Assembly (NCBI GenBank): GCA_965368285.1
Contig: CBDUMJ010000001.1
Coordinates: 1-29,892 of the forward strand
DNA from: an uncultured archaeon
GTDB taxonomy: Archaea; Thermoproteota; Bathyarchaeia; TCS64
DNA length: 29,892 bases
Direction of reading: 5' to 3'
Positions 1,288 to 20,169 of the stretch are shown piece by piece. Under the pieces are notes generated by a model that was not told the DNA's origin, ran no database searches, and saw nothing but the letters and a program-made list of their open reading frames with translations. Every line of letters begins with the position of its first letter. Position 1 is the stretch's first letter. The translations under genes were made by a program, and so were the position numbers.

Positions 1288-4200
1288 ATGGATAGGTTGA
1301 AGGGAGTGACGTCTTTTGACACATCAATCCAGTGGTCATACACAACTTCTTTACAAGCTTCGGTCTTGAGACAGATATATAGAGACACTAACACAATAAG
1401 AAGGTGTGTTGACCAAATTGCGACGACGATCGCTGGACTCCCTTTTGAAGTGAAGGTGTCTCATCCATTCAAGAAGGAAGTAATCTCCGCTATTTTTGAA
1501 GGAGTGGGTCCCACAGGTGAAACATTTAAGGAAGTCCTTCAAGCATGTGTTGTTGACATGCTTGTCATCAACAAAGGTGTTATATTACCTGTGTTCACAC
1601 TTGGGTCTCAACTGAAAAGTTTCACCGCAAGAGACGCGGGCACGTTTGCTCCTGTGTTTAGAAAAGATGGGGTTCTCTTAGGATACATTCAGGAGGTCAA
1701 TGGTAAAAAATTTGAATTCAAACCAGATGAGGTTATTGTTATAGCTGGGGTCAAAAGGACCTACACTATTGGATCCTTATCTATCATTGAGTCTCTGACT
1801 TACGAGATCACTAATTTGGTTTACTCACTCCAGCGGATGCACAAGAAAGGAAGGCCACCAATTGGTGTTTTCGTAGTGCAAGAGGACGTAGGAAAGGAGG
1901 TAATAGAAAAACTACAGGCAGACTTAACCAACTTAGTTCAAGAACAGTCAACTAAAGTGCCAATTCTTTGGGGTGCTGGTAGAGGCGAGTGGATTGACAT
2001 AGTAAAACAACTAGACGTTCAACTCATAACCTCCTTCTTAGACCGAATGGATTGGCTGGTACGTTCAGCGTTTGGTTTCTCCAATCCTGGAGATAGTTTA
2101 GGCAGGCAAACCGCGCGACCTTTATTGTATTCGACCTACACACCTCATATTGTAACAGCTATCCAAGATCAACTCAATCACTTTCTCCGCCCTTACGGTA
2201 TCAATATAAGATTCAAAATACCCCCCGCTCATACTATATCAGAGTTGCTACTAGCTGCGAGGTCTGGGCTTATTTCACCTAACGAAGCAAGGGCATTCCT
2301 GCACTTACCACCCGCTCAAGGTGGTGACACACTCACTATCTTACAACCACAAGGTCTCACACCTGTTGGTGGGACAAAGCCTCCTGGTGGGGGAGCAAAA
2401 CCTCCTACCCAAGAACCTATAGTTGTGACCCCAGCTCGTGCTGAATCAGAGGACCCGTTTCAAGAGATAAAAAGGGCTGCCGAGTTAGAATATCTAGAAA
2501 GCGTACGTAACTTGAACCTGATTAGTGACCCTAAGACAGCTGACTTTGTATCTAAGCGGATGACTCTTTCAATGAAGCTAACCAAAAAGCTCAGGAAAGT
2601 ACATGAGGAGCTCACAGAGAAACTGTGCGAAAAGTTCATGCTAGTCAGAGCAGACGTTACCCCTACACTCGATCCATTGGACAAATGGTTCTACACGCAA
2701 ATACAGAACGCCTTGAAAGATGTGACCCCTGACGCTCTTCAGACAGGGTACTACTGGGTAGATAGGTACTGGCCTTCTTATGACAAAGATTATGTCGACG
2801 CTGAAACTGTACGTTCATTAAAGAAGATTAACGACTATATGACTCGTCAGTGGACTTCAAAATATCAAGAAGTCAAGAAAGACGCAGAAAAGAGAGATTG
2901 GGACAAAGTAAGAGATGATTTACATAAGTTACTCCTAAGCTTCCTGGCAGCGGGTGCGTTCGTTGGTTACCTTACACACTTACCCCTCCAGGCTGTAACT
3001 CGATTTTTTACCCTAAAAGGCAAAACTATCTATTACAAATGGGTTGGCACTGGCGATGAGAACATGTGTCAAGACTGTCGGGAGATGCACGGTAAAGTCT
3101 TCTCGCAAACTGAACTTGAGTTTATAGGTAGGTGGCCGGGCTGTGGTGAGCCTTACAAAGCTAGGGGAGTAAGATGTAACGGTAAATGTCGGTGCGTGTT
3201 AATTCCTGTCGATATAGAGGAGACCAGGTTTGAAGTAGATTGGCTCCAAAAAGTCATCCCAGTAAGAGGCCTGCACTTACCCAAGTCCGAGCTGCTGGCA
3301 ATAGGCGCGCTTGATCATGTCGATAAGAAAATCCGGGATATTTTACTAAAAGAACCTCGATTACGTGAACCTGCTTACTTTGCTTTGTTTGACAAAATAA
3401 CAACCACAGCGGCTGAGACACCATATTATAACCCGCTGGTAAACACGCTGTACATCCCTGCAAAAGCAACACATTCAACAGTAAGAAGTGCGTTTGTTGA
3501 CGCAGTTGTTGAGAACCTAATGTTTAGGAACAACTTTCTCGACCCATACTCACCCATCACAGCCCAGCTCGCAGCTATAATGCAAAAGGCTCGTGAGGAT
3601 GTGTGGGAAACTCGCTTGTGGAAAGTGTTCAGAAAGGTTGGTATAGAACTCGGCAAAGAACCGTACATTAAATTAGAAGAGGCGTGGAAGTTTGGGAACT
3701 TGGCGCCTTTTGAGAAGTTCACCTTACCACTCGACTTTCCTAAAGAAGCGTATGTGGATCCGATGTTGTTCTTTAAACACATGTTTCGCGCGGTTATCTT
3801 CACACCTCATAGGGAAATACCTGGTAAAGTAGCGTTTGAAGACTTCCTAGCATCAACACTTTGGACACCAAGTTCTTACAAAAAATGGGTTGGCAAGTCA
3901 CTTGAGAGACTGGGGCGGCCTTGGCCCGCTGTAACAAGTGTTGATGCGATTATGAAAAGAATTCCCTACGTCGACGAAAAGATCGAACCGTACATCCGAG
4001 CCCTATTGGAAACCTACCCCTTCCTAAGAGTCCCAGCTATATGGGAAGGACTCAACTATATTGGATTCAGTAAGACTACTTCAACATTTAACGCGTCGTA
4101 TATTTTAGGACGTGGGTATGAGAAGTTTATGGAATCATTCAACTCATCTATTGTAGTTACTCCTAACCTTTACCAGATACTTCATGAATTAGGTCACCAT

Positions 4201-5610
4201 ATCTTTGAACGTCATGTCATGTACAACACACTACTAGGGTCCACCTATGGGCAGGTCTACCTCTATGGGATCCTGTATCCTTTCGTAGAGAGGGCTACCT
4301 TATATGCAAAAAGTGAGAAGGAAGTAGCGAAGTTAATTGGATTTCTTGAGTACTTGGTGGAGAAAGAACAAAAGGGCCAGCTTCAAGCGGCTTTACTGGC
4401 TAGTTCGTCGTACATACGCGAAAACCTCATCAAGCCGTTCCAAGACAGGTTACCTGAGATTACGAAAAACTTATCTATTCCTCTCCGGGTGTATGCTATC
4501 TCAGACCCAGCGGAATCCTTCGCTGAGTTGTTTGCAACATTTGTAACCAAGCCCACAATCCTGCGGTACAGTTCACCCGAGCTTTACGACTACTTCTTAT
4601 CCTTAATGAGAGCAGTAGCAGTGAAGCCTCTCGCTGAGCTCAAAACCGAGAGAATGTGGAAAGAGTACATAGAGGCGATGAAGAAGCTGAAGCTCAGCCC
4701 CGATCAAATAAGAGAAGCAATAGAGTCTACTTTAACTGTTATGGCATCCACAGAAGCACAAAACTGGGATACAGTTGGCATGATGATTCGTAGGATTATA
4801 GCTGCGTCTAGGAGCGACAAGAGTTTATTGTTGGAGTTAGAGAAAGAAAAAGTGATTGATGTGCAAGGATTTAGTGAACAGCTAAATAAGATGACGGAAT
4901 ACTCAAGGCTAAAGGCATTAGAGGAAGCGCGTAAGAGGCCTGTCACTGCAGCAATTTTAAAGCGCGAAAGAGAGAAATATAAGAGGTTATTTGAGTTCTT
5001 AGCGGACACTAAAGGTAAGGATTTTCACAACGTGGTCGTTGAGTTTGTAGCAAAACTCGCGCCCGAAGAGCAATGTGAACCCATAGTGAACAAAATCTTC
5101 GCTTACTTGGACAGACAAGGATGGAGTAAGGATGCAATGTACGATGTATGGCGTCGGCTGAAAAACATTCGGTCTGGCGGTAAGCCAAGACAAGATGCGT
5201 ATAAATGGTTCGAAGAAGAAATGAAAGTCAAATGGACTTTGAAAAGGCCATGGGAGAAGAAAAAGAAAGTCATCGAAGCTGCTAAGCGTGAAAAGTGGTT
5301 TATCAAGTTCCAAGAAGCGGCAAAGGGTAAAGACTTTCGTAAGTTAGTCGCTAAGTTTGTGACAAAACTGACATCGGAAGAACAGCAGGTGCCGGTTGCG
5401 AACAAAATCTTTGCTTACCTAAATAAGCACGGGTGGAGCGAAGACGCAAAATTTAACGTGTGGCGCCACTTAAGAGGTATTGTGTTAGGTGGTAAATGGA
5501 GAGAAGACGCGTTTGAATGGTTTAAGAAGGAGGTGGGGATTGTCTGGGTGGCGCCAAAACGCCGTCCTGAAGAACAGTACCTCATCAAACTCCTAAAAGG
5601 AGGCGAGTAA
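1288..5610 (+). CDS. Portal protein fused to MuF (SPP1 gp7-like) head morphogenesis domain, zincin metallopeptidase domain(s) and a C-terminal duplicated helical domain
   Basis: Portal-like RRCVDQIATTIAGLPF...GLISPNEARAFLHLPPAQGGD (first ~350 aa); MuF-like YKWVGTGDENMCQDC...CNGKCRCVLIP; HELGH at 4183-4197 with downstream DPAESFAE; one uninterrupted ORF; AGGAG SD. Confidence 0.85.
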   Translation: MDRLKGVTSFDTSIQWSYTTSLQASVLRQIYRDTNTIRRCVDQIATTIAGLPFEVKVSHPFKKEVISAIFEGVGPTGETFKEVLQACVVDMLVINKGVILPVFTLGSQLKSFTARDAGTFAPVFRKDGVLLGYIQEVNGKKFEFKPDEVIVIAGVKRTYTIGSLSIIESLTYEITNLVYSLQRMHKKGRPPIGVFVVQEDVGKEVIEKLQADLTNLVQEQSTKVPILWGAGRGEWIDIVKQLDVQLITSFLDRMDWLVRSAFGFSNPGDSLGRQTARPLLYSTYTPHIVTAIQDQLNHFLRPYGINIRFKIPPAHTISELLLAARSGLISPNEARAFLHLPPAQGGDTLTILQPQGLTPVGGTKPPGGGAKPPTQEPIVVTPARAESEDPFQEIKRAAELEYLESVRNLNLISDPKTADFVSKRMTLSMKLTKKLRKVHEELTEKLCEKFMLVRADVTPTLDPLDKWFYTQIQNALKDVTPDALQTGYYWVDRYWPSYDKDYVDAETVRSLKKINDYMTRQWTSKYQEVKKDAEKRDWDKVRDDLHKLLLSFLAAGAFVGYLTHLPLQAVTRFFTLKGKTIYYKWVGTGDENMCQDCREMHGKVFSQTELEFIGRWPGCGEPYKARGVRCNGKCRCVLIPVDIEETRFEVDWLQKVIPVRGLHLPKSELLAIGALDHVDKKIRDILLKEPRLREPAYFALFDKITTTAAETPYYNPLVNTLYIPAKATHSTVRSAFVDAVVENLMFRNNFLDPYSPITAQLAAIMQKAREDVWETRLWKVFRKVGIELGKEPYIKLEEAWKFGNLAPFEKFTLPLDFPKEAYVDPMLFFKHMFRAVIFTPHREIPGKVAFEDFLASTLWTPSSYKKWVGKSLERLGRPWPAVTSVDAIMKRIPYVDEKIEPYIRALLETYPFLRVPAIWEGLNYIGFSKTTSTFNASYILGRGYEKFMESFNSSIVVTPNLYQILHELGHHIFERHVMYNTLLGSTYGQVYLYGILYPFVERATLYAKSEKEVAKLIGFLEYLVEKEQKGQLQAALLASSSYIRENLIKPFQDRLPEITKNLSIPLRVYAISDPAESFAELFATFVTKPTILRYSSPELYDYFLSLMRAVAVKPLAELKTERMWKEYIEAMKKLKLSPDQIREAIESTLTVMASTEAQNWDTVGMMIRRIIAASRSDKSLLLELEKEKVIDVQGFSEQLNKMTEYSRLKALEEARKRPVTAAILKREREKYKRLFEFLADTKGKDFHNVVVEFVAKLAPEEQCEPIVNKIFAYLDRQGWSKDAMYDVWRRLKNIRSGGKPRQDAYKWFEEEMKVKWTLKRPWEKKKKVIEAAKREKWFIKFQEAAKGKDFRKLVAKFVTKLTSEEQQVPVANKIFAYLNKHGWSEDAKFNVWRHLRGIVLGGKWREDAFEWFKKEVGIVWVAPKRRPEEQYLIKLLKGGE

Positions 5611-6191
5611 TGAGAGGTTTCATTATTGAAGTAAAATCCAACCGAGTAGTTGGAATATGGACTATTACCTTTGGCAGCTTATTCGTGTCGACGCCTGACG
5701 ACACGGTTAAGAGGCGAATAAGCAAGGGCATCCTACGGTCCAAACCTACTATATACCGTGGAAAGTTGTTCACTGAACCTGATTACATTCAGCCAGCAAA
5801 TGCAACGTTAGCTGAACTGACAGAAGCCCTTTCACCTGACTACGTGTGTGTAGCGGAAGAGGACATGGAAGAAGGTGCTATAAAGTTCCCACCACAAGAA
5901 GCTAAACTTACCTCAAACAACCTAGTTGGTCTTGTTACAAAAGATAACAAGGTTGTAGATGTATGGTGCTATGCCGGAGGTGAAATAAAATCACGCGTTC
6001 GTCCTAAGGGTTCAATAGAGACGAATGAAGTTGAAGTGTCGGAAACCAGTGCTGGGAATCTTAGGTGTGTAACAAGAACCGAGCGTGCGAGAAAGGCGGA
6101 ACCTGTAAGTTTGGGTGAAATTTCTTTAGCAACACCATATGCATTTTTACCAATGAGGTACTTTAAATGGGTAGAAAGAAAAAAGTCTTAG
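5610..6191 (+). CDS. Hypothetical protein with internal duplication, coupled to the portal-MuF gene
   Basis: TAATG stop/start overlap; IIEVKSNRVVGIW and LVTKDNKVVDVW repeats. Confidence 0.75.
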   Translation: MRGFIIEVKSNRVVGIWTITFGSLFVSTPDDTVKRRISKGILRSKPTIYRGKLFTEPDYIQPANATLAELTEALSPDYVCVAEEDMEEGAIKFPPQEAKLTSNNLVGLVTKDNKVVDVWCYAGGEIKSRVRPKGSIETNEVEVSETSAGNLRCVTRTERARKAEPVSLGEISLATPYAFLPMRYFKWVERKKS

Positions 6192-7910: not shown

Positions 7911-9047
7911 ATGCGTGGTAAGGTTCTAATCGCAGGTATAGACGGTTTTATAGGATTTGCATTAGCGCAAAATTTAGTAGCACACGGGTTCGAGGTTTAT
8001 GGTATCGACAACCTCTTCAGAAGGAAGGTCGCAACGTCCATAACCCCAATTGCGTCAGTAGAAGACAGGGTTCACACCCTATCAATTGGCTTCGAAGTCT
8101 GTGACGTAACTGATTGGCCCCACTTCTTAGACGTACTCCGCAGAGTCGATCCAGACGCTATTGTGTATTTAGCACATCAACCTAGTGCACCGTACTCTAT
8201 GAAGGACCGAGAGAGCTGCTTTGAAACTACGTTCACCAACACTATTGGACCTTTAAACCTTGTTTGGGCTCTGCGAGAATTAAAGATGGATGTACACGTT
8301 ATAGTAATCGGAACCTTAGGAGAGTACGCGGCGTCTAACATCCCTATTTCAGAAAAGGGACTGGAAGTTAGCTACGGACCGTTCAAGGAAGTCCTACCAT
8401 ACCCCCGTAGAGGAATCTCTTTCTATCACGATACAAAAATCTTAGGCTCTCTTTATCTGGAGTTAGCGTGCAACTGCTGGGGGTTAACAGTGACTGACGT
8501 GATGCAAGGTGTTGTCTTTGGTGTATTAACAGAGGAAATAGACGGGAAAGACGAACTCTTATTCACACGCTTTGACGCAGATGAACTGTTTGGGACTTAT
8601 CTCAATCGTCTATGCGCCGAAGCTGCAACTAAAGATGTCTCGTTAACCGTCTACGGTTCGGGGAATCAAAAGAGAGGCTTCCTGCCTTTAAGAGACTCCA
8701 TTCAGTGCCTTCGTTTGTTATTAGAGAACCCACCCAGACGTGGAGAGTATAGGCTAGTTAATCAGTTAATGGAAGTCTATAGGCTGGAAGACCTGGCTAG
8801 AACTGTTAAAAGAATTTCAATGGAGGAATTTGGTATTTTCACAAAGATGAAGTACTATCCCAATCCAAGAGTTGAAAGAGAAGACATTGACTTATACAAA
8901 GTAGAGAAAGGAATCTTAGACAGCCTTGGTTACAAGCCTTCAATTACTCTTGAAGAAGAAATCAAGAACACTATTGAAATTTGTATAAAATATCGTAAGA
9001 GGATTCCTAGAAAGCTATTGAAACCGCGTACTAGATGGCGCCCTTAA
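7911..9047 (+). CDS. sqdB: UDP-sulfoquinovose synthase (SQD1/SqdB/Agl3, extended SDR family)
   Basis: GIDGFIG Rossmann motif, DNLFRR, SITPIAS, QPSAPYSM, GTLGEY (catalytic Thr), FYHDTK (YxxxK), DVMQGVVFG, DELFGTYLNR, LTVYGSGNQKRG, NPRVE; colinear with SQD1 family signatures along the whole length. Confidence 0.9.
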   Translation: MRGKVLIAGIDGFIGFALAQNLVAHGFEVYGIDNLFRRKVATSITPIASVEDRVHTLSIGFEVCDVTDWPHFLDVLRRVDPDAIVYLAHQPSAPYSMKDRESCFETTFTNTIGPLNLVWALRELKMDVHVIVIGTLGEYAASNIPISEKGLEVSYGPFKEVLPYPRRGISFYHDTKILGSLYLELACNCWGLTVTDVMQGVVFGVLTEEIDGKDELLFTRFDADELFGTYLNRLCAEAATKDVSLTVYGSGNQKRGFLPLRDSIQCLRLLLENPPRRGEYRLVNQLMEVYRLEDLARTVKRISMEEFGIFTKMKYYPNPRVEREDIDLYKVEKGILDSLGYKPSITLEEEIKNTIEICIKYRKRIPRKLLKPRTRWRP

Positions 9048-9980
9048 CCAACGTTTTACACTGAATGAAACAGTACCCTCTTTTAACATACGCTTTACAG
9101 CGGGGGTTATCTCTAACTTTAGTTCACGTTCGAAGGCGCTCATTCGGTACCAAAACCTCTGGAACAAGCTAACTGGTATTTCCTTCTTCTTGACCAACTC
9201 CAAGGTGTCCTTATATAGCTTTTGCAGATTATCCGCTCCTTTACTCCATCTTTCTAAAACGTGCATGAGCATATCAGTTTCCCTCTCTTGCCCAGACTTA
9301 CGTATGTAGGGGATTAATCTCTGCATCTCTTTTACAAGCGACTTCCTACCGCTCTTAGTTGGATAATTCGCACCTAGTTTTGCATATGTGATAAAACTAC
9401 TCGGACCTGGCCTGACAATAAAAGCCTTCTGCCCACTCTCAACCAGTAAATTGTGATATATCTTTTGTAGGTGCTTTCCTGACATCTCTCTGCCAAATAT
9501 CTTGGGCCCAAAGACCACAGGCACTCTTGGAACCTGTGAACTCACCATCCATTTTGGAGATAAAGGTTCAAATGGGATTCTAATCCCCGCCTTATATAAC
9601 CTACGCATCCCACCTTCGGCAAATATGTAGTCCTTCCTAATCGCGAAGTCAGATAAATAGGAAACATCACCCATTGCGTTAGCAAGCTGGTGTATAGCCT
9701 TTGGGTGATGAGATGCCTCTCTAAAGACCTCAATAGTATTTTTGTACTTCTTATGCTTTATTTCGTTCCAGAGGTAATCAGGCAGAGTTTCTTTCAGAAA
9801 GACGTAACCATCACTGGTGAGCATAGACCTTCCCAGCTTATCCACCGTAATGGATCCAAAGTATAAGTTCAGAATATGTTGTAACGTCTTGGGATCTTTG
9901 ATTCTCCACGGCTCAAACTCCGATACATGTATCCAGAATAGTTTACCTTGCCTATTCCTAAGTGGTATAAACTCTAACAC
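9015..9980 (-). CDS. Hypothetical protein with degenerate GNAT-like segment
   Basis: 321-aa ORF; ESGQKAFIV...YAKLGANY aligns with RSGVDEVKV...FSMLGAEF of the neighbour; converges on sqdB with 33-bp overlap. Confidence 0.7.
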   Translation of the reverse strand: MLEFIPLRNRQGKLFWIHVSEFEPWRIKDPKTLQHILNLYFGSITVDKLGRSMLTSDGYVFLKETLPDYLWNEIKHKKYKNTIEVFREASHHPKAIHQLANAMGDVSYLSDFAIRKDYIFAEGGMRRLYKAGIRIPFEPLSPKWMVSSQVPRVPVVFGPKIFGREMSGKHLQKIYHNLLVESGQKAFIVRPGPSSFITYAKLGANYPTKSGRKSLVKEMQRLIPYIRKSGQERETDMLMHVLERWSKGADNLQKLYKDTLELVKKKEIPVSLFQRFWYRMSAFERELKLEITPAVKRMLKEGTVSFSVKRWLRAPSSTRFQ

Positions 9981-9981
9981 C

Positions 9982-10989
9982 TTAACCTCTCACCAAAAGG
10001 TCTAATAGCTTATTTCCCTTCATAGGGATTCTGTACTTGCTGACTCCCTTGCCGAATATTAACTCTAATAGCCTTTTGAAATCCTTATAAGTGCCAGGTG
10101 CCTCTCCAGTAGTGGGGAACCCCGGTCTTCTAGGGAACATTGTATCTCTAAATATTTCCAAAATCCTGGGTAAACTTTGCGTTTGTTCTTTCGATAGCGT
10201 TATCATGATTTTCTTTATTTGCCACTCACGGGCTAATTTCATTCCCTTTAACTTACTAATAGCCAGCGCAGTGAATAACTTCGCCTCTCTTGGATTCTCA
10301 AACTCCGCCCCCAGCATGCTAAATAACACATGATCCGCCTTTCCTCTGCCTGCTACCTTAACCTCATCTACTCCACTCCTCTTAAACACCCGCGCTACTC
10401 TTTTAGCCCAATCCACATCACCACCTCTAACCTTCTCCAACCTCCTGGGATACATCACCAACTTATCTTTTTCTTTCTCAATACTTCCTACAAAACCTAA
10501 TGAAACGTCACCTTTCCATATCTTGGCATCTAAATCTATATTACCTCCTTTCTTTAATTCGACCTTATGTACATCATACGAATCCAGTCCTATCATATTA
10601 GCAGCACACGCCATCGCCCCCGGCGCTTTACAGACCTCACTCAACCTAGCTCCTATCTTTCCTTCATAACTCAACGCACCTATTAAATCTTTCATTCCAA
10701 TCCTGAGAAAGCTTTTCCCACCTTCGTTTATCTTAGCACTTTGTCCTACCAATCTCATAGTATTCATCTCAATCAATCTTTTACCAGCATCACTCAGCTT
10801 TTCCTCTCTTAACCTTTCTAACGGGATTGGGATGTGTCTAAGCCTACCTTTGACTCTTTTAGTAATAAATGTAACAGGACGTCCTTTTTCATCAACCTTG
10901 ATCTCGTATGCTCTTTTTAACTCTTTGAAGAACAAGTATTTAGCTAGAGAATCGAAGAACCTATCTTCGTTTTTTACCTTTACAATCAT
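9982..10989 (-). CDS. Lys/Arg-rich hypothetical protein with FITxxxxGxxxxIPI motif and degenerate GNAT-like segment
   Basis: 335-aa ORF, strongly purine-rich coding strand; motifs read from the translation. Confidence 0.75.
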   Translation of the reverse strand: MIVKVKNEDRFFDSLAKYLFFKELKRAYEIKVDEKGRPVTFITKRVKGRLRHIPIPLERLREEKLSDAGKRLIEMNTMRLVGQSAKINEGGKSFLRIGMKDLIGALSYEGKIGARLSEVCKAPGAMACAANMIGLDSYDVHKVELKKGGNIDLDAKIWKGDVSLGFVGSIEKEKDKLVMYPRRLEKVRGGDVDWAKRVARVFKRSGVDEVKVAGRGKADHVLFSMLGAEFENPREAKLFTALAISKLKGMKLAREWQIKKIMITLSKEQTQSLPRILEIFRDTMFPRRPGFPTTGEAPGTYKDFKRLLELIFGKGVSKYRIPMKGNKLLDLLVRG

Positions 10990-11242: not shown

Positions 11243-11440
11243 ACGTGACTTTTCCAACAGCTCTCTTAACGCGTACTTAACACAGCTCGGTTAACGCGTA
11301 TTGGTTCCTTCCAACACAACACGACGTGAACGTGACTTTTCTAACAGCTCTCTTAACGTGTACTAGCACAGCTCTCTTAACGCGTACTGGTTCCTTTTCA
11401 ACATAACGTGACTTTTTCTAACAGCCCCCCAAACGCGTAC
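11243..11440. repeat. Nested direct repeats (iteron-like), candidate replication origin
   Basis: ACGTGACTTTT units at 11243, 11330, 11406; five copies of ACAGCTCTCTTAACGCGTACT-like 20-21-mers at 11257, 11282, 11344, 11368, 11421; located at the gene-strand switch. Confidence 0.8.
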
Positions 11441-11471
11441 TAAGCAAAAATATATTAAAATTAAATATATA

Positions 11472-11510
11472 AAATTTAGTAATATATTAAGTTAATATAT
11501 TACTAAATTT
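11472..11510. repeat. Perfect 19-bp inverted repeat with 1-nt spacer, AT-rich
   Basis: AAATTTAGTAATATATTAA-G-TTAATATATTACTAAATTT. Confidence 0.95.
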
Positions 11511-11517
11511 ACACGAA

Positions 11518-11563
11518 GGCCAAGGCCAGTAAATCTGGCCTAATCCAGGCCGGAAAGGAGGTG
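11518..11563 (+). promoter_or_regulatory. Structured leader element copy 1 + SD
   Basis: GGCC-AA-GGCCAG(TAAAT)CTGGCC-TAATCCA-GGCC-GGAAAGGAGGTG. Confidence 0.8.
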
Positions 11564-11569
11564 AAAACC

Positions 11570-11869
11570 ATGGCGAACCTGAAAGAACTCATCGGCAAGG
11601 CCCTACAGGAGCAAGGCCAGCAAGGCGGCGGGCACATCACTGCCATGCGCCAACTCCTGGGCAAAATCGAGCGCGAGCATGGCCGCGAGGTGATCAGGCA
11701 ACTCAGGCCCTCTGGGTTCCGCCTGATCTTCGCAGCAGTCCACCCTGACTTGGCAAAGAAGGTCGGGAACCAGCACGAGTACGCCTGCCAGCTGAACCAC
11801 TACAAGGCCAACAACGACTTCAAGTATGACAGGGTCAACAAGACTTGGATCGACACTAGGGCTAAATAA
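11570..11869 (+). CDS. Hypothetical protein, paralog of 16181-16516; GC-rich codon usage
   Basis: ATG 6 nt after SD (track GTG at 11561 lies inside the SD); LKELIGKAL...GHITAMRQL...LRPSGFR. Confidence 0.85.
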   Translation: MANLKELIGKALQEQGQQGGGHITAMRQLLGKIEREHGREVIRQLRPSGFRLIFAAVHPDLAKKVGNQHEYACQLNHYKANNDFKYDRVNKTWIDTRAK

Positions 11870-11870
11870 T

Positions 11871-11908
11871 CCCGCCCAGGGCCCCGGCGGGAAAAGGTAA
11901 AGGGGCCC
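11871..11908 (+). ncRNA. Predicted H-type RNA pseudoknot 1 (3' of the 11570 gene)
   Basis: S1 CCCGCC/GGCGGG, L1 CA, S2 GGGCCCC/GGGGCCC, L2 0 nt, L3 AAAAGGTAAA. Confidence 0.7.
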
Positions 11909-11940
11909 AGTAAAGAAATGACCCGTTCAGGGGATTGCGA

Positions 11941-11985
11941 CTGGCCCGGGCCCATCCAGGCCAATCTAGGGTCAGAAAGGAGGTG
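11941..11985 (+). promoter_or_regulatory. Structured leader element copy 2 + SD
   Basis: CTGGCCC-G-GGCC(CATCCA)GGCC-AATCTA-GGGTCAG-AAAGGAGGTG. Confidence 0.75.
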
Positions 11986-11992
11986 GAGGAAG

Positions 11993-12280
11993 ATGATGTT
12001 AAGGTTCATAGAGGCGGGTGATGGCCCCTTCGAGGGTACTCACGCCGTAGATATAGGTGTTGAGACCACACGAGGGGAGCGAATCAGCGCGCGGCTCTTC
12101 TTCGGCAAGAAGGGTTTCGCAATCGACAACCTGATCTATCAGAGAACCGCTGAGTCATCAAAAGTATGCGTCAAGAGCCTTAGTGATCTCGATTGCGCGT
12201 CCTTGGAAGCACGTGATTGGGTTGTGTCAATGTTCGGGATTGAGACTGGCATAGAAGAGGAGGTGGAGGAAGATGAATGA
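11993..12280 (+). CDS. Hypothetical acidic protein
   Basis: ATG after leader SD; track start 11918 reads through the leader element. Confidence 0.75.
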   Translation: MMLRFIEAGDGPFEGTHAVDIGVETTRGERISARLFFGKKGFAIDNLIYQRTAESSKVCVKSLSDLDCASLEARDWVVSMFGIETGIEEEVEEDE

Positions 12281-12446
12281 AGGCTTTAAAGTAGGTGATA
12301 GGGTTACTGTTGTAGACCACCCTGATGACCATTATAACGGGGTGGAAGGGGAAATCGTGTTCATTCACGGAGGTTCTTGTCTAGTGGAGAATGATACTAC
12401 AGTCTATGAACTGAGACTGGATTGGTTAAAGTCTAAAGAGGATTGA
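12273..12446 (+). CDS. Small KOW/SH3-like beta-barrel protein (57 aa, below the track cutoff)
   Basis: Own translation MNEGFKVGDRVTVVDHPDDHYNGVEGEIVFIHGGSCLVENDTTVYELRLDWLKSKED; GGAGG SD; overlaps upstream stop. Confidence 0.7.
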   Translation: MNEGFKVGDRVTVVDHPDDHYNGVEGEIVFIHGGSCLVENDTTVYELRLDWLKSKED

Positions 12447-12448
12447 GG

Positions 12449-12498
12449 CTGACCCAGGTACCCGCGCGGGTACCTAATCCAAGGTCAGGAAGGAGGTG
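12449..12498 (+). promoter_or_regulatory. Structured leader element copy 3 + SD
   Basis: CTGACC-CA-GGTACCC(GCGC)GGGTACC-TAATCCAA-GGTCAG-GAAGGAGGTG. Confidence 0.85.
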
Positions 12499-12506
12499 AA
12501 AGAGCT

Positions 12507-13031
12507 GTGGAGCGCCAGGAATACTTAATTCGAAAGAAAGACGGCAGAGAATTCAAAGTAATCGTCGAGCTGGAACCTGAGCCTACACCTGTAATGGAAC
12601 CTGACCTTACTGACCTGATCGAGGAAGCCTTAGAAAAGAAGGCTTCCAAGTCGAGGTGGCCACTGGGCCCTACACAAAAGATTCGGTTCAGAGGAAGGAC
12701 AAGGAGGATCATGCGGCTGCAGTACATACAGGCATTTGGAATCTGGGGTGCGTTGGAAGTACTAAACATGAGGCCGAAAGAGACACCGAAGGAAGAGTTG
12801 AACATCGACATGAAAGACCCGTTAGGAAAGCTGATCGCGGAAGCCCTTAAAGGAAAGAAAAGAGGGCGGCCGCGGAAGAAAGTGGAGTCGCGTGTTCTAC
12901 CGGGAACGAAGATTGGAGACATGTATCAGAAGTGGGGAGAATTCACGTGCGACTGGAAAGATAAACCGGACTCAGAAATAGACGTTGGGACGATGGAAGT
13001 GATAGAAAGTCTATTATACGGAAATGAATAA
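12507..13031 (+). CDS. Hypothetical protein with AT-hook-like KRGRPRKK motif
   Basis: GTG after SD; LTDLIEEALEKK and LGKLIAEALKGK resemble the N-termini of the 11570/16181 proteins. Confidence 0.75.
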   Translation: MERQEYLIRKKDGREFKVIVELEPEPTPVMEPDLTDLIEEALEKKASKSRWPLGPTQKIRFRGRTRRIMRLQYIQAFGIWGALEVLNMRPKETPKEELNIDMKDPLGKLIAEALKGKKRGRPRKKVESRVLPGTKIGDMYQKWGEFTCDWKDKPDSEIDVGTMEVIESLLYGNE

Positions 13032-13075
13032 CCGTTGTGGCTCCGGTAAAAGAATCTGAGCCACGGAGGGAGGTG
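13032..13075 (+). promoter_or_regulatory. Variant leader element (long outer stem, no inner hairpin) + SD
   Basis: GTGGCTC-CGGTAAAAG-AATCT-GAGCCAC-GGAGGGAGGTG. Confidence 0.55.
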
Positions 13076-13080
13076 AGGAG

Positions 13081-13341
13081 ATGAAGAGATGTAAGAAGTG
13101 TGGAAAACCGATTCCAGAATGGGTGGAGATATGCCCAGAGTGTGCACCTCTTCGCGTGGAAGAGGTGGTTGCGTCGGTTTTCTACATCAATGAAGATGGG
13201 GTCCAGAAGGTAGAGAACTTCACAGATGGGAGCGAAGATGGGTTGGAAGAAGCAGTAAAGTTCTTCGAGCAGTGCCCAGGGAGGGCCAGGTTGGTAGTAA
13301 AGGATCCAATTGAATCATGGAGACGAGTAAAGGAGAAGTGA
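13081..13341 (+). CDS. Zinc-ribbon protein
   Basis: N-terminal CKKC...CPEC; SD upstream. Confidence 0.8.
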   Translation: MKRCKKCGKPIPEWVEICPECAPLRVEEVVASVFYINEDGVQKVENFTDGSEDGLEEAVKFFEQCPGRARLVVKDPIESWRRVKEK

Positions 13342-13342
13342 G

Positions 13343-13600
13343 ATGCCGTATAGAGTACAGGAAGTCGGTTCCCCACTACGAGCCTATAACGGTACCTTGC
13401 TCTGTACTAGTACATTAGAAGAAGCAAGGGTGGTACAGGAGCAGTGGTATGGTGAAGATGTGGACCTCTATGAGGTTCACGGGTATGTAGTGGAAAGCTT
13501 CGAGGAAAAATACTGGTTGGATAACAATAATTTTGTGAAGGTAAGAGCGGTCCTACTCCGACCTAAAAGGATTATAAAGGTTGGAGTAGTGCCGATTTGA
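13343..13600 (+). CDS. Hypothetical protein (weak ADP-ribosyltransferase-fold pattern)
   Basis: ORF directly after the previous stop; YR...CTST...LYEV pattern. Confidence 0.7.
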   Translation: MPYRVQEVGSPLRAYNGTLLCTSTLEEARVVQEQWYGEDVDLYEVHGYVVESFEEKYWLDNNNFVKVRAVLLRPKRIIKVGVVPI

Positions 13601-13615
13601 AAGGAGGTGAAAAAG

Positions 13616-13732
13616 ATGTTAGAGAAATACCAAGAAATCGGTCCGGTAGTTGTAGGCGTTAAGAACGTGCATTACTTCATGGTTTGGTTCTTTAAGGGTC
13701 GCGCAACAGTAGTCGCGTTCTTAAAGAAGTAA
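13616..13732 (+). CDS. Small hydrophobic protein (38 aa, below the track cutoff)
   Basis: AAAGGAGGTGA SD; MLEKYQEIGPVVVGVKNVHYFMVWFFKGRATVVAFLKK; fills the gap up to the next leader. Confidence 0.65.
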   Translation: MLEKYQEIGPVVVGVKNVHYFMVWFFKGRATVVAFLKK

Positions 13733-13735
13733 GCA

Positions 13736-13778
13736 GCCCAGGACCAAGAGGTCCTAATCCAAGGCCAGAAAGGAGGTG
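13736..13778 (+). promoter_or_regulatory. Structured leader element copy 4 + SD
   Basis: GCC-CA-GGACC(AAGA)GGTCC-TAATCCAA-GGC-CAGAAAGGAGGTG. Confidence 0.85.
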
Positions 13779-13783
13779 AGGAG

Positions 13784-13975
13784 ATGAAGTCGAAAGTATT
13801 AAATGAAGTGATTCGCGTCGGGAACGTTTTAGAGAAAGCGGAGACGAGGCTGGAGCGGATAATAGATGAGGTTGACGACGCGAAAGCAAGGGAGTATCTT
13901 ACCGAAGCTCACGACAAAGTAGTGGAGGCGTGGGCGACGTTGGTAACATTAGTCACAGAAGAGAAAGCAAAGTAA
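13784..13975 (+). CDS. Small helical-hairpin (coiled-coil) protein
   Basis: ATG after leader SD; amphipathic heptads. Confidence 0.75.
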   Translation: MKSKVLNEVIRVGNVLEKAETRLERIIDEVDDAKAREYLTEAHDKVVEAWATLVTLVTEEKAK

Positions 13976-14016
13976 GCCTGGGCCAAAGGTCCTAATCTAA
14001 GGCTGGAAAGGAGGTG
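13975..14016 (+). promoter_or_regulatory. Structured leader element copy 5 + SD
   Basis: AGCCT-GGGCC(AAA)GGTCC-TAATCTA-AGGCT-GGAAAGGAGGTG. Confidence 0.85.
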
Positions 14017-14022
14017 GGTGTT

Positions 14023-14448
14023 GTGAGGTTGTTTACGACTGTACCATGTTCTATGATAAGTCTACAACAAATCCTGAAAGATGGAGTACCACCTGGTTCT
14101 GATACTGCTAACGGGCATGATGTTGTACTCGTTTCAGCAATTGAGTTCCCACTATTAAATGAACCTACTTGGGTAGTGGAGTTTGAGGTTGAGCCTACAG
14201 AAGTCTACTTTGATTGCGACGATGGTAGTGAAATAATAAATCAGCTTCCACTTGAGGAGCAAAAGATTGACTGGAGTGATAAACCGTTAGCTACAGTACT
14301 TAGTAAGTATAATGATGTTGAAGTACGTACTGGTTATGGGTTGTATGTCAAACGTGTAAAACCGGAACAGGTGAAGAGAGTGACGTTTCAGTTACATTTG
14401 GATTCGGATTTGAGTACAACACATATTAGAATGGACTTAACAGCCTAG
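14023..14448 (+). CDS. Hypothetical protein, possible ART/Tpt1-like fold
   Basis: Likely GTG start at 14023 (track GTG is inside the SD); RLFTT...LQQILKDGVPP, WVVEFEV, VKPEQVKRV. Confidence 0.7.
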   Translation: MRLFTTVPCSMISLQQILKDGVPPGSDTANGHDVVLVSAIEFPLLNEPTWVVEFEVEPTEVYFDCDDGSEIINQLPLEEQKIDWSDKPLATVLSKYNDVEVRTGYGLYVKRVKPEQVKRVTFQLHLDSDLSTTHIRMDLTA

Positions 14449-14486
14449 GACCAAAAAGGTCCTAATCTAAGGCTGGAAAGGAGGTG
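14441..14486 (+). promoter_or_regulatory. Structured leader element copy 6 + SD
   Basis: CAGCCT-A-GGACC(AAAAA)GGTCC-TAATCTA-AGGCTG-GAAAGGAGGTG; overlaps the upstream stop codon. Confidence 0.85.
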
Positions 14487-14491
14487 AGGGA

Positions 14492-14896
14492 ATGAAGCTC
14501 GATCTAGGTTCGGGACCAAAAGAATACTGGGTAGAGGACACCCCAGACTGGATCCATTTGGACTGCGAGAAGTATGACGGAGTCGTGGAGTGGAGGTGTC
14601 CTGATCGGATTCCGGTTGGGGATGAGTCTACCGATGAGGTTTACATAGGGCAACTATTGATAGCGTTAGACAAAATCGCGCGTGCGGAGTTGGCGCGCGA
14701 GTTAGATAGAGTATGTAAAGTTGGCGCGGTTTTACAGGTTCATTGTTATGGAGATGAAAGAAGTGGAGTTGGAGTATGGAGAGAGTTCTTCGATCTGCTA
14801 GAGTGTAGAGGATGGACATTAGTAAAGGAGGAACCGGTTAACAAATGGGAAAGAGGTTATACCTATATGATCAAACTAATAAAGAGACCCGCTTAG
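14492..14896 (+). CDS. Class I SAM-dependent methyltransferase-like protein
   Basis: KLDLGSG motif I, WIHLD, IPVGDESTDEVY, ELDRVCKVGAVLQV. Confidence 0.7.
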   Translation: MKLDLGSGPKEYWVEDTPDWIHLDCEKYDGVVEWRCPDRIPVGDESTDEVYIGQLLIALDKIARAELARELDRVCKVGAVLQVHCYGDERSGVGVWREFFDLLECRGWTLVKEEPVNKWERGYTYMIKLIKRPA

Positions 14897-14945
14897 AGGG
14901 GATTGAGCAGCGTTATATAGTTTCTATAAGGAACTATATACAATG

Positions 14946-14989
14946 GGCCTGGGACCAAAAGGTCCTAATCTAAGGCTGGAAAGGAGGTG
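14946..14989 (+). promoter_or_regulatory. Structured leader element copy 7 + SD
   Basis: GGCCT-G-GGACC(AAAA)GGTCC-TAATCTA-AGGCT-GGAAAGGAGGTG. Confidence 0.85.
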
Positions 14990-14998
14990 AGAGAGAAA

Positions 14999-15343
14999 GT
15001 GGACTACAGGGACATCATCAACCAGTTCATGCAGGAAGTGAGAGCGGAACCTGGGTTACTAGAGAAGCTGAAAGGGAAACCAGTCTGTGTTTGGACTAGA
15101 GTGATTTGTGACTACGCTGAACTGAAAGAGTTGACAAAGACACCTAGAGTGAAGTTATACCGTCAAGTTTATAGTTGGCTACGACACCGGATCACCTATG
15201 AACCGAAACCGAAAGAGGACAAAGAACAGCCGTGGGGCAAGTTGGACCCACGAAAGAGAGCGTATCAGATTACGGAAGCGCGGTACACCCGAATTGAAGT
15301 AGAAGCGGTTAATAAAGCACTATTTCAACGTCAGGATGAGTAA
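14999..15343 (+). CDS. Hypothetical protein
   Basis: Likely GTG start 9 nt after SD (track GTG 14987 is inside the SD). Confidence 0.75.
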   Translation: MDYRDIINQFMQEVRAEPGLLEKLKGKPVCVWTRVICDYAELKELTKTPRVKLYRQVYSWLRHRITYEPKPKEDKEQPWGKLDPRKRAYQITEARYTRIEVEAVNKALFQRQDE

Positions 15344-15365
15344 GTGGTTGGCACGAAATTTCTGG

Positions 15366-15394
15366 TTGATGTGAAAATGCACCTGTAATAAAAT
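15366..15394 (+). promoter_or_regulatory. Possible sigma70-type promoter
   Basis: TTGATG-N17-TAAAAT; overlaps the 20-bp repeat, so either reading could be incidental. Confidence 0.35.
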
Positions 15395-15406
15395 CAAGGG
15401 GTTGAG
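15387..15406 (+). repeat. 20-bp element AATAAAATCAAGGGGTTGAG, partner of 11103-11122 (opposite strand)
   Basis: 19/20 identity. Confidence 0.75.
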
Positions 15407-15413
15407 CTCGGGG

Positions 15414-15518
15414 TGCTCACTTAGGCTGAGCAACTTTTGAGTAGAAACAGTTAAGCACTGGAACTCTACTTTGACAAAACCCTGCCTTAGGTCTCGCTTT
15501 GGTGAGGCCAGGCAGGGT
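15414..15518 (+). ncRNA. Candidate small RNA of three consecutive hairpins
   Basis: TGCTCA/TGAGCA (15414-15432); AGTAGA/TCTACT with inner CAGT/ACTG (15440-15470); ACCCTGCCT/AGGCAGGGT with inner GGTCTC/GAGGCC (15479-15518); ORF-free gap. Confidence 0.4.
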
Positions 15519-15552
15519 AATGAAAGGAAAAGCTGGTTTGTTTGTGAAGGTT

Positions 15553-15591
15553 TAATTTTATTTTATATAAATTTTTATTTTTTAAAACGTT
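15553..15591 (+). promoter_or_regulatory. 39-bp AT-rich element, copy A (candidate promoter)
   Basis: 38/39 identical to 16088-16126; contains TTTATATA; immediately 5' of an SD. Confidence 0.7.
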
Positions 15592-15605
15592 AGGAGGTGT
15601 CGTTT

Positions 15606-15878
15606 GTGACAGATGGGTACAAACTAAGGGAGATAAAGACAGTTGATGATCTGGGTGAAACTGGAAACATTTGGTGGTTGGAGCTGTATGAGTTCGAGGA
15701 CCTCAAAGGCAAGTATGTGATTGATGATCGTCAGGCAACTACCTATGACCCAGAAGGATCCAAGATGGTTGAAGTGGTTCTGAGTGTCAACAATGTGATT
15801 TATGATGTAGAAGCAGAAGTGGACATAGTAGGCAACGAGTTGTACATTGCAGAGGAAGAGATCGACCGGATAATCTAG
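15606..15878 (+). CDS. Acidic hypothetical protein
   Basis: GTG after AGGAGGTG SD (track start is inside the SD). Confidence 0.75.
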   Translation: MTDGYKLREIKTVDDLGETGNIWWLELYEFEDLKGKYVIDDRQATTYDPEGSKMVEVVLSVNNVIYDVEAEVDIVGNELYIAEEEIDRII

Positions 15879-15903
15879 TCAAACTAAGAGGAGGTGAAGA
15901 AGA

Positions 15904-16080
15904 GTGCATATAGAGGAAGAAGAGATGGAAGAGGTATATCAGGCATTAGAGAAGCTACTGTGTAAAAAGTTGGAAGAGCTTGGGCATGATAAGATGTCAG
16001 AGTGTGTAGAAGAACTGGATAAGGAGTTAGCTTATTGGATTAACAAGTACTTGGACGGTTGGGGTTCTTACTACCTGTAG
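15904..16080 (+). CDS. Small acidic helical protein (58 aa, below the track cutoff)
   Basis: AGGAGGTGA SD; MHIEEEEMEEVYQALEKLLCKKLEELGHDKMSECVEELDKELAYWINKYLDGWGSYYL. Confidence 0.7.
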   Translation: MHIEEEEMEEVYQALEKLLCKKLEELGHDKMSECVEELDKELAYWINKYLDGWGSYYL

Positions 16081-16087
16081 TCAGGCA

Positions 16088-16126
16088 TAATTTTATTTTA
16101 TATAAAATTTTATTTTTTAAAACGTT
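16088..16126 (+). promoter_or_regulatory. 39-bp AT-rich element, copy B
   Basis: 38/39 identical to copy A; directly precedes leader copy 8. Confidence 0.7.
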
Positions 16127-16131
16127 TGGAA

Positions 16132-16174
16132 CAGCTTGGACCTTTAGTCCAAATCCAGGCTGTGAAAGGAGGTG
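16132..16174 (+). promoter_or_regulatory. Structured leader element copy 8 + SD
   Basis: CAGCT-TGGAC(CTTTA)GTCCA-AATCCA-GGCTG-TGAAAGGAGGTG. Confidence 0.8.
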
Positions 16175-16180
16175 AAAAGA

Positions 16181-16516
16181 ATGGCGGAGGCAAAGAAAAC
16201 TGGCATTATGACCGTAAAAGAATCTGAGAAGGAAGCTACTGTGGATCTGAAATCTCTCGTGGACGCAGCATTAGAGAAGAAGAACGGTCAGTCTCAGTTG
16301 GGCCACACCACCTACATGCGCGATTTGGCAGCAAGGATCATAAAGGATAAAGGTCCTGAGGTCTTCAAGAAGTTAGGTCCAACTGGATTCCGGAAAGTAT
16401 GTATCCTCATGTTCAAGAACGAGAAGCCTGAGTTGTGGAAGAGAGTGCAAGAGAAAGTGAAGATGTCAACCTTGAAGGCAGAGATGCAGAAGGCTTACTA
16501 CGATGCACAAGAGTAG
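16181..16516 (+). CDS. Hypothetical protein, paralog of 11570-11869
   Basis: LKSLVDAAL...GHTTYMRDL...LGPTGFR aligns with the 11570 product. Confidence 0.85.
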   Translation: MAEAKKTGIMTVKESEKEATVDLKSLVDAALEKKNGQSQLGHTTYMRDLAARIIKDKGPEVFKKLGPTGFRKVCILMFKNEKPELWKRVQEKVKMSTLKAEMQKAYYDAQE

Positions 16517-20116: not shown

Positions 20117-20154
20117 AAATTTTTTAATTTAAAAAAATTTAATTTTAAAATGTT
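20117..20154 (+). promoter_or_regulatory. AT-rich element, diverged third copy
   Basis: Ends TTTTAAAATGTT-AGGAGGTG like copy A (TTTTAAAACGTT-AGGAGGTG); dyad AAATTTTTT/AAAAAATTT. Confidence 0.5.
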
Positions 20155-20169
20155 AGGAGGTGAGAGGAA

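Follow-up and report, generated by a model that had tools for sequence, protein, structure and literature searches.

The early region of a probable archaeal tailed virus carries a short, structured element that recurs in front of its small genes, each time fused to the Shine-Dalgarno sequence (SD) of the gene that follows. The stretch of DNA analysed here (the window, 29,892 nucleotides) is the complete 29.9-kb contig CBDUMJ010000001.1, labelled C1, within the 540-contig metagenome-assembled genome (MAG) GCA_965368285.1 of an uncultured member of the Bathyarchaeia. The element is a sense-strand structure under selection, and a comparison of related loci shows it to be, as far as sequences can tell, a joint for homologous crossover, where gene cassettes enter, leave and change order among related viruses. 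We further propose, with confidence evenly divided between yes and no, that it is at the same time a structured RNA leader that marks where the message of each cassette begins and is read by a factor. The recombination role has comparative support, and each of the RNA-level steps is one that we infer.

On the plus strand every copy has the same order: an outer 5' strand, 0-1 unpaired nucleotides (nt), an inner hairpin, the word (T/C/A)AATC(Y)(A) and the outer 3' strand, followed by G(A/G)AAGGAGGTG, 5-9 nt and a start codon. The element is 34-40 nt long, with a G+C content of 0.49-0.69 and no AT-rich box inside. Its outer helix (4-7 bp) and inner helix (4-8 bp) stack on an unbroken 5' strand, giving 11-14 bp in total where the copy is intact, and down to 9 bp in the hybrid copy E4. 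The 3' strand bulges out by 6-7 nt, (U/C/A)AAUC(Y/A)(A/G), and 3-4 nt separate the end of the outer helix from the extended SD. An earlier note on this DNA, made from the sequence alone, had listed eight copies and quoted their stem sequences, and both the positions and the sequences proved right. Its layout was right about the two stems; the unpaired word, which it called a loop, is more aptly seen as a bulge on the 3' side, between two helices stacked coaxially. A covariance model (R1) made from the eight window copies, with the SD excluded, and searched with filters off gave eight strong matches in the window and no others (25.6-45 bits, E 3e-12 to 6e-6, all on the plus strand), the best match outside the elements scoring 11.6 bits. 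The plain pattern AATCYAN7RAAGGAGG occurs in the window 7 times exactly and 10 times with at most 2 mismatches (1.09 expected), and RNAfold returns the two-part hairpin as the minimum-energy fold for most window copies. The copies (E1 to E8), a degenerate ninth (E9) and an example of the module that follows them are listed below, with gene families numbered f0, f1 and so on.

11516-11553, plus strand: E1, before f0 (start 11570), just 3' of an AT-rich promoter-like block; 34.2 bits.
11554-11572, plus strand: extended SD GAAAGGAGGTGA, spacer and start codon, as an example of the module found after every copy.
11941-11975, plus strand: E2, before f8 (start 11993); outer stem of 7 bp including one G-U.
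12449-12488, plus strand: E3, before f3 (start 12507), 2 nt past the f13 stop; inner hairpin GGTACCC/GGGTACC.
13038-13066, plus strand: E9, before f1 (start 13081); 7-bp outer stem, AATCT and SD, inner hairpin lost, so that AATCT lies directly 5' of the outer 3' strand; kept in relatives.
13733-13768, plus strand: E4, before the variable cassette f14; outer stem CAGCC.../...GGCCAG, a mismatched hybrid of 3 bp.
13973-14006, plus strand: E5, before f9; 3-nt overlap with the f14 stop.
14440-14476, plus strand: E6, before f5; contains the f9 stop TAG (9-nt overlap); top-scoring copy.
14944-14979, plus strand: E7, before f6; hybrid of the elements that flank f19 in the related locus L010.
16131-16164, plus strand: E8, before the second f0 paralog (start 16181), between an AT-rich promoter-like block and the SD.

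The evidence for selection on the structure comes from relatives. A motif scan of contigs from JGI metagenomes gave 16 loci, and R1 found 81 and then 89 copies in the relatives' loci, 45-48 of them distinct; the scan of viral metagenomes that the earlier note had advised thus brought up further copies, in relatives from hydrothermal-vent metagenomes. In the alignments fitted to the model, 84.7-85.3% of the cells are paired, as against 73-74% after shuffling, a value that none of 500 shuffles reached, and the covariation score is 0.37-0.39 as against 0.21-0.22 (slid partners, at most 59%). Ten of the 12 pairs vary on both sides in these alignments, and both helices covary. A plain MAFFT alignment of 25 diverse copies, which was not fitted to the model and on which the complete two-helix structure was counted afterwards, behaves in the same way, with 88.5% of cells paired versus 76.6% in shuffled alignments (0 of 500) and a covariation score of 0.472 versus 0.263 (slid partners, at most 58%). 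On this alignment RNAalifold recovered the inner helix unaided, with compensation at 5 of its 6 pairs. The minimum free energy fold has the same architecture in 44 of 46 distinct copies, with an unbroken 5' strand, 3-6 nt in the loop and a 3' bulge of 6-7 nt, and the mean fold energy of the distinct copies is -16.6 kcal/mol at 37 C and -9.5 kcal/mol at 60 C. Because the plus strand folds more stably than the minus strand in 30 copies as against 10 (Wilcoxon p ~0.001), and because G-U cells (56) exceed A-C cells (22), the fold belongs to the sense strand; every copy stands in sense orientation. The idea of a selected RNA or single-stranded DNA (ssDNA) structure, put forward in the earlier note, is supported by the covariation of both helices on both kinds of alignment and by the greater stability of the plus strand.

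What is conserved in the structure is unevenly spread. The bulge word is AATC in all eight window copies, as had been claimed, and in 42 of the 46 distinct copies across relatives, the remainder being AATT in three (one of which reads GATT) and AATA in one; AAT is fixed except in one copy, and 42 of 46 have the C after it. The pairs that close the bulge (..GCC / AGG..CCU / ..GGC) are nearly fixed, while the distal stem pairs and the loop are free to vary. A fixed bulge with fixed closing pairs, and distal stems that are conserved in their pairing only, look like the usual signature of a hairpin bound by a protein or an enzyme. Compensatory changes are also seen at orthologous junctions: before f5, AGGACC/GGTCCT has become AGAACC/GGTTCT, and before f6, CAGCCC/GGGCTG has become CAGCTC/GGGCTG (with a G-U pair) and an A-U pair has become G-C.

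The link to the downstream gene is rigid. In all genomes, true copies are followed by (G)RAAGGAGGTG, with the start codon 15-19 nt past the end of the element (this leaves out a chance match in L046, a bacterial-looking contig in which no structure is present); the window copies are each followed by (G)AAAGGAGGTG and a start codon. R1 contains no SD, though an SD trails every true copy. On the other side the distance is loose, the gap to the upstream stop ranging from -9 nt (stop within the element) to +114 nt. Five of the eight window copies overlap or directly adjoin the upstream coding sequence, and in four (gaps of -9, -3, 0 and +2 nt) the element fills the entire space from stop to SD, an arrangement already pointed out for several copies. 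Since surplus spacer is always upstream of the element, the element is part of the leader of the downstream gene and not of the tail of the upstream gene.

Two of the copies stand directly behind AT-rich blocks, which carry TTTATATA-like words and in their repeated form read ATTTTATTTTATATAAA(A)TTTTTATTTTTTAAAACGTT, resembling a TATA box.

11440-11515, no strand assigned: presumed divergent promoter region, AT-rich, heading the early array and containing TATA-box-like motifs.
16088-16125, plus strand: AT-rich promoter-like repeat TTTATATAAAA, with further copies at 15545-15590 and at ~20130 (~20125-20165).

These blocks are presumably archaeal TATA promoters. The copy at 15545 leads straight to an SD without an element, whereas the copy at 16088 has E8 before the SD. 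E1 and E8 lie ~25 nt downstream of the TATA-like boxes, and transcripts from the first and third blocks would start at the first bases of these two elements.

The comparison of cassette order among relatives, a check named in the earlier note, speaks for its suggestion of a gene-shuffling cassette system. Genes were called in 19 loci (the window and 18 related loci, numbered with an L) and their products clustered. The loci share a backbone in which the element (E) alternates with genes. Its left part is f12 - E - f0 - E - [f8 f13 / f21 (f26) / both / none] - E - [f31] - E, its middle part, after that E, f3 f1 f2 (f7) - E - [f14] - E - [f9] - E - f5, and its right part, after that f5, E - [f19] - E - f6 f4 (f10) - E - f0'. 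The units in brackets come and go among genomes whose shared genes are 85-98% identical. Among the 18 related loci the indels are element-plus-gene units only (f8-f13, f21, f31, f14, f9 and f19), each made of one element and one or two genes, and the element heads early cassettes of 1-4 genes. Junction sequences agree with this picture. In L034, which is without f9, the f14>f5 junction consists of the left part of window E5 and the right part of E6, letter for letter, with the crossover somewhere within the 29 nt common to both (GGTCCTAATCTAAGGCTGGAAAGGAGGTG). Window E7 equals the 5' half of the L010 element before f19 joined to the 3' half of the element after f19. Window E4, at the border of the variable f14 cassette, has an outer stem built from two unmatched halves, of which 3 pairs remain, and the inner hairpin of window E3 stands before f21 in other genomes. 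As both the indel boundaries and these junctions fall at elements, the elements are crossover joints, with fresh hybrids recognizable by weaker outer stems. Larger composite modules also move: a block of CRISPR-repeat-like unit, palindrome and element recurs before f3 in L038 and L039, and in the window an AT-rich palindrome, TATATAGTT..AACTATATA, is found at 14909-14943, between such a repeat-like unit and E7.

The distribution of the element is narrow. It is confined to the ~5-kb early ORFan region both in the window and in a 131-kb relative, and f3, f9 and f4 occur with and without it across genomes; the virus-wide regulon imagined in the earlier note is therefore not supported. Within the MAG the element is on this contig only, and the R1 search found no other copy in 79 genomes of its order (the MAG and 78 others). 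A motif scan of the GTDB species genomes gave no copies, and that of IMG/VR gave true copies in two close relatives only, the other 11 loci (on 9 contigs) being chance SD matches without stems. A search of the more distant relative L059 with filters off gave no copy either; its f5 product shows 71% identity, and it also retains an f0 homologue and an AT-rich promoter of this type. L059 has long intergenic repeats of its own before paralogous genes (4040-4180 and 5140-5235; 4530-4640 and 5680-5790), which indicates that related viruses use different repeated leaders. On the 1.8-kb contig L045, two good copies surround an unrelated gene, and the element with its SD is all that this contig has in common with the virus by blastn and tblastx.

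These findings bear on the main rival of our proposal, which holds that the element is a recombination module at the DNA level or a young selfish repeat. The ~30-nt 3' half (inner 3' strand, AATC, outer 3' strand and SD) would then be conserved as shared homology, the hairpin would be tolerated or a by-product, and there would be no reader at the RNA level. For this explanation speak the exact element-by-element recombinant, the hybrid copies and the bounding of every indel by elements. The element is also limited to one clade, is dispensable and turns up on an unrelated contig, and neither copies in the host nor a reader have been found. Recombination needs identity and not pairing, yet the distal stems diverge while remaining paired, even at orthologous junctions; moreover, the unpaired AAUC is better conserved than the paired positions, and a strand asymmetry of the fold is unexpected for duplex DNA. 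We therefore regard the explanation as doubtful, with a chance that is not negligible.

A variant of a DNA-level role, that the element folds as ssDNA for a structure-specific enzyme, be it attC-like for a tyrosine recombinase or similar to repetitive extragenic palindromes (REP) and IS200 for an HUH Y1 transposase, is very unlikely in our judgement. It is true that the reading direction of the element-gene-element-gene array points away from a divergent control region, that part of the hairpin is extrahelical, with one short conserved word, and that G-T pairs are compatible with ssDNA. Like attC sites, including those of archaeal integrons, the element is a structure-defined, sequence-poor site that punctuates promoterless cassettes beside a divergent control region. 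Unlike them, it measures 34-40 nt instead of at least 57 nt, lies 5' of the gene and is fused to the SD, a rigid fusion that would be meaningless for a DNA site. Its conserved letters are CC-(U)AAUC-..GG and not the attC core (RYYYAAC / GTTRRRY), and a GTAG-type core is lacking as well. The 131-kb relative gave no match to Phage_integrase (PF00589), so that an IntI-type recombinase would have to be very divergent, and none to Y1_Tnp (PF01797), the transposase expected for REP or IS200-IS605 systems. Plain homologous crossover within the shared 29 nt explains the junctions.

Together, our data suggest a model in which the element and the SD form one module that heads each early cassette and acts after transcription. 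The module would form or define the 5' end of the message of each cassette, and the conserved bulge with its flanking G-C pairs would be read by a putative factor. E1 and E8 would be 5'-terminal on primary transcripts from the TATA blocks, and punctuation would let every other message begin with the same hairpin-plus-SD leader as these primary transcripts. The presence of the element on otherwise unrelated contigs, and the lack of a viral candidate, lead us to prefer as its reader a host enzyme or the translation apparatus. An ordinary host regulon is excluded, since the host MAG and the 78 genomes of its order are without copies. As to how the module would work, an endonucleolytic cut or an exonuclease block that punctuates and stabilizes polycistronic early RNA is the leading, though tentative, suggestion. 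A translational operator, by which one factor would switch the early set together, is slightly less probable again, and a passive enhancer or insulator seems distinctly unlikely. The insulator idea in particular is not supported, as the predicted accessibility of the SD is almost equal in the native sequence (0.48), after deletion of the element (0.44) and after shuffling it (0.39).

Several points weigh against this leader model. Recombinational swapping of whole stems between copies may account for much of what counts as covariation, and G-T pairs would likewise stabilize a plus-strand ssDNA hairpin. Deleting or shuffling the element hardly alters the predicted SD accessibility. No candidate reader was seen among the viral genes, nearly all of which are without Pfam matches, and neither the host MAG beyond the virus contig nor the 78 genomes of the order hold a copy. 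Finally, the element is dispensable gene by gene, as f3, f9 and f4 show, and it is absent from L059 despite the presence there of f5 and of an f0 homologue. Two further candidates for what the element might be recognized by were dropped. The complementarity of CUAAUCC to the universal GGAUUAG of the 790 loop in 16S rRNA is of a length (6-7 nt) expected by chance for some rRNA site, and a tRNA-like minihelix for RNase P or RNase Z would need the unpaired stretch on the other strand.

A more far-reaching form of the leader model is that archaeal viruses have a dedicated system for RNA punctuation with the element as its recognition site, in which an endonuclease or RNA-binding protein reads the AAUC bulge. 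Polycistronic early RNA would be cut or marked so that each cassette has its own message with a hairpin-plus-SD leader, and the CRISPR-repeat mimics described below would belong to the same scheme, as sites of host Cas6-dependent cuts or as RNA anti-CRISPR decoys. We consider this unlikely; if true, expression signal, processing signal and recombination joint would be one portable unit.

Rfam 15 gave no gathering-score match in the window and, with E up to 10 over 11400-16300, no match that overlaps the elements save for one base common to E2 and a match to CRISPR-DR8, the one family matched repeatedly, on a separate motif that lies upstream; the comparison with Rfam that had been recommended therefore yielded no family. 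The element is new to Rfam and has no described counterpart in the literature and databases searched, and it is kin in kind to the regulatory-cassette repeats of T4-type phages. These are the promoter-early stem-loop (PeSL) cassettes (Arbiol et al. 2010, PMC2839356; Comeau et al. 2014, PMC4122927), which combine a strong sigma-70 promoter core with a stem-loop that is a transcription terminator (PMC2839356; PMC4122927). As in PeSLs, a short composite motif occupies the space between the stop of one gene and the SD and start of its neighbour and is repeated before ORFans (genes without Pfam matches) in a hyperplastic early region; the stem-loop contains G-T pairs; and where close relatives differ by an indel or a replacement, motifs form its boundaries, which recombination between motifs explains. 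Unlike PeSLs, the element contains no strong promoter, separate TATA-like blocks standing before 2-3 copies only, and no T-run follows its stem-loop (GAAAGGAGG). It also differs in its two-part helix with AAUC bulge, its compensatory changes and its probable archaeal virus. In behaviour, PeSL cassettes are on our best reading the closest known system, with the element as an archaeal, RNA-structured counterpart.

Early genes of phage T7 are separated by RNase III sites, and Bacillus phage SP82 has Bs-RNase III sites with a polypurine 5' stabilizer. The element resembles these in being an intercistronic hairpin with a 3'-side unpaired stretch immediately before a strong SD in early phage mRNA. 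It differs from them in a helix about half as long and in an archaeal host without a secure RNase III. That it is an RNase III site of the T7 early-mRNA type, where a cut 3' of the internal loop would leave a protective hairpin on the upstream RNA, is most improbable. The shape, the position between early genes and just before the SD, and one marginal RNase III domain match in the MAG (contig C299, 26.6 bits) would fit. Against this stand the archaeal nature of the MAG, the absence of the domain from all four archaeal control genomes, the possibility that the C299 match is contamination, the lack of an Rfam match, and a helix that, at 11-14 bp when intact and 9 bp in the E4 hybrid, falls short of about two turns (~20 bp) of double-stranded RNA. 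The C299 match is located at 1990-2229 on the minus strand, in a frame of 167 amino acids (27 bits with neighbouring matches in frame), which may come from a contaminant or may be a rare case of an RNase III-like gene in an archaeon. The earlier note had named T7 RNase III sites and PeSLs as analogues and recognized the motif as neither, and it was right in this: the likenesses do not amount to membership, given the archaeal host and the short helices in the one case and the missing PeSL-type promoter in the other.

Archaea possess RNase J / beta-CASP 5'-3' exonucleases, and an exonuclease barrier has a precedent of sorts. Chloroplast intercistronic elements (e.g. PMC3799425) are comparable in that a barrier just in front of the ribosome-binding site would determine where the RNA of the downstream cistron begins. 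In chloroplasts a pentatricopeptide repeat (PPR) protein on unstructured RNA blocks RNase J, whereas here the barrier would be a predicted RNA hairpin, with or without a bound factor. The halovirus HF2 has class I and II intergenic repeats, which are AT-rich promoters with a transcription factor B recognition element (BRE) and TATA box and with mapped transcript starts (Russ et al. 2021, PMC8707807). Like the element, they are signals that recur between genes in the early-to-middle part of an archaeal tailed virus and keep their positions in its relatives. The element, unlike them, is a hairpin fused to an SD and has no AT-rich motif; the HF2 repeats correspond to the AT-rich blocks of the present virus. 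Two motifs of archaeal RNA were compared too. A kink-turn has a 3-nt bulge and tandem G-A pairs, as opposed to the bulge of 6-7 nt followed by (A)GG pairs in the 46 copies inspected, and a bulge-helix-bulge has two 3-nt bulges 4 bp apart, as opposed to one bulged strand, 0-1 unpaired nt on the 5' strand and an inner helix of 4-8 bp.

To our knowledge, very little is known about the processing and translation of polycistronic early RNA in archaeal viruses, and the literature searched held no structured intercistronic signal of archaeal viruses with covariation support. The element is a compact RNA motif that lends itself to testing, with an AAUC bulge, a fixed distance to the SD and natural compensatory variants, and it is a clear case in nature, beyond the T4-type phages, of cassettes being shuffled at a regulatory repeat. 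A specific reader, should there be one, would form with it a new pair for RNA-protein recognition in archaea, and thermophilic archaea would gain a portable part for gene expression. If there is none, a hairpin-plus-SD module alone can serve as a gene-exchange joint among co-occurring viruses.

Near two of the elements the window contains solitary units that resemble CRISPR repeats.

11910-11941, plus strand: solitary repeat-like unit (...GACCCG..GGGGATTGCGAC) that abuts E2; Rfam CRISPR-DR8, E 0.35-0.55.
14877-14908, plus strand: second solitary unit, overlapping the f5 stop, 36 nt upstream of E7; CRISPR-DR8, 24.9 bits, E 0.023.

Both CRISPR-DR8 matches cover the full model length and fall below the gathering score. 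On the sense strand the motif reads ..GACCCG(Y)TT(A)GAGGGGATTG(A/C)G.., and it lies 2-36 nt upstream of E2, E7 and further copies in relatives. Units of the form GACCCG..GGGGATTGAG/CG are also present in L040, L033, L037, L038 and L042, with 2-3 per genome and each just upstream of an element, and the copy of one relative ends in the canonical ATTGAAAC. The same repeat pattern forms true arrays in many bacterial and archaeal genomes; none was found in 79 genomes of the host order. The units look like solitary CRISPR-repeat mimics of the kind described as RNA anti-CRISPRs (PMC10651486), and may be either RNA anti-CRISPR decoys or Cas6-dependent processing sites.

This neighbourhood raises the idea that the element itself is a counter-measure to CRISPR at the RNA level, its AAUCY bulge pairing with GGAUU(G), where the repeat meets the 5' handle, in host CRISPR RNA precursors or in the viral mimics. 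YAAUCY is complementary, with wobbles, to the invariant GGAUUG of the units, which stand so close upstream of E2, E7 and other copies. This complementarity extends over just 4-6 nt and is shorter in many copies (AAUCA or AAAUC), most copies have no repeat-like unit nearby, and a pseudoknot with an adjacent unit is by reasoning sterically implausible, with a linker of 0-1 nt. No array with that repeat was found in the host order, and the element has no Rfam CRISPR-DR match of its own, sharing only the six letters AATCCA with the repeat of the MAG array. There is hence scarcely any likelihood left for the idea. Two readings of the bulge were discarded: the pseudoknot between the bulge and the adjacent unit on grounds of geometry, and the bulge as a type III CRISPR anti-tag, for which the inner 3' strand would need to match and is not conserved. 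Further downstream, after f6, a 250-nt non-coding stretch (15344-15596) may be the gene of a small RNA; it contains a strong hairpin, CCCTGCC...GGCAGGG, together with the degenerate repeat-like word GGGGTTGAGC.

The window comes from a tailed virus with a probable archaeal host. It carries a portal-MuF fusion gene and a large terminase gene, the latter assigned through distant homologues with Terminase_6 domains, and from 11.5 kb on a rightward series of small genes with nearly no Pfam matches. Two divergent genes at 9015-10989 gave no Pfam match, and a search of the ESM Atlas with the 335-residue product of a divergent gene returned nothing. The host MAG is archaeal, because it encodes TBP twice and the tRNA-splicing endonuclease EndA; mcrA was not found in it, and ANME-1 was rejected as the host on this ground. 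Window DNA is present in many metagenome runs from hydrothermal vents and sediments. Near-identical copies of the f5 product have been binned twice in MAGs of 'Candidatus Bathyarchaeota archaeon' and once in a MAG of 'Ca. Desulfofervidus'; related contigs are up to ~152 kb long. By binning, the host is probably a member of the Bathyarchaeia. No relatives were found among the INPHARED phage records, nor in IMG/VR with a ParB-like gene as anchor; IMG/VR does hold two close relatives, of 64.9 kb and 131 kb. Terminase relatives at 54-60% identity differ in gene order, and their 21-kb loci did not reach the early regions and added no copies. One of them, L187 (56% identity), encodes a DnaB-like helicase, a family A DNA polymerase with an intein, and RecA_N. 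This replication set is more typical of bacterial phages, so that the hosts of the wider virus group may or may not be archaeal.

The one clear CRISPR array of the MAG has no spacer that matches the virus. It is located on contig C86 (6729-7030), with five spacers and the repeat GTTTCAATCCACGCCCCCGCACGGGGGGCGAC, which we take to resemble bacterial type I-C repeats; the contig may be a binning contaminant. On contig C164 (3499-3820), a 16-nt palindrome, TCTATTGGTACCAATA, occurs in ~6 copies spaced 55-121 bp apart, an arrangement that is not a CRISPR array.

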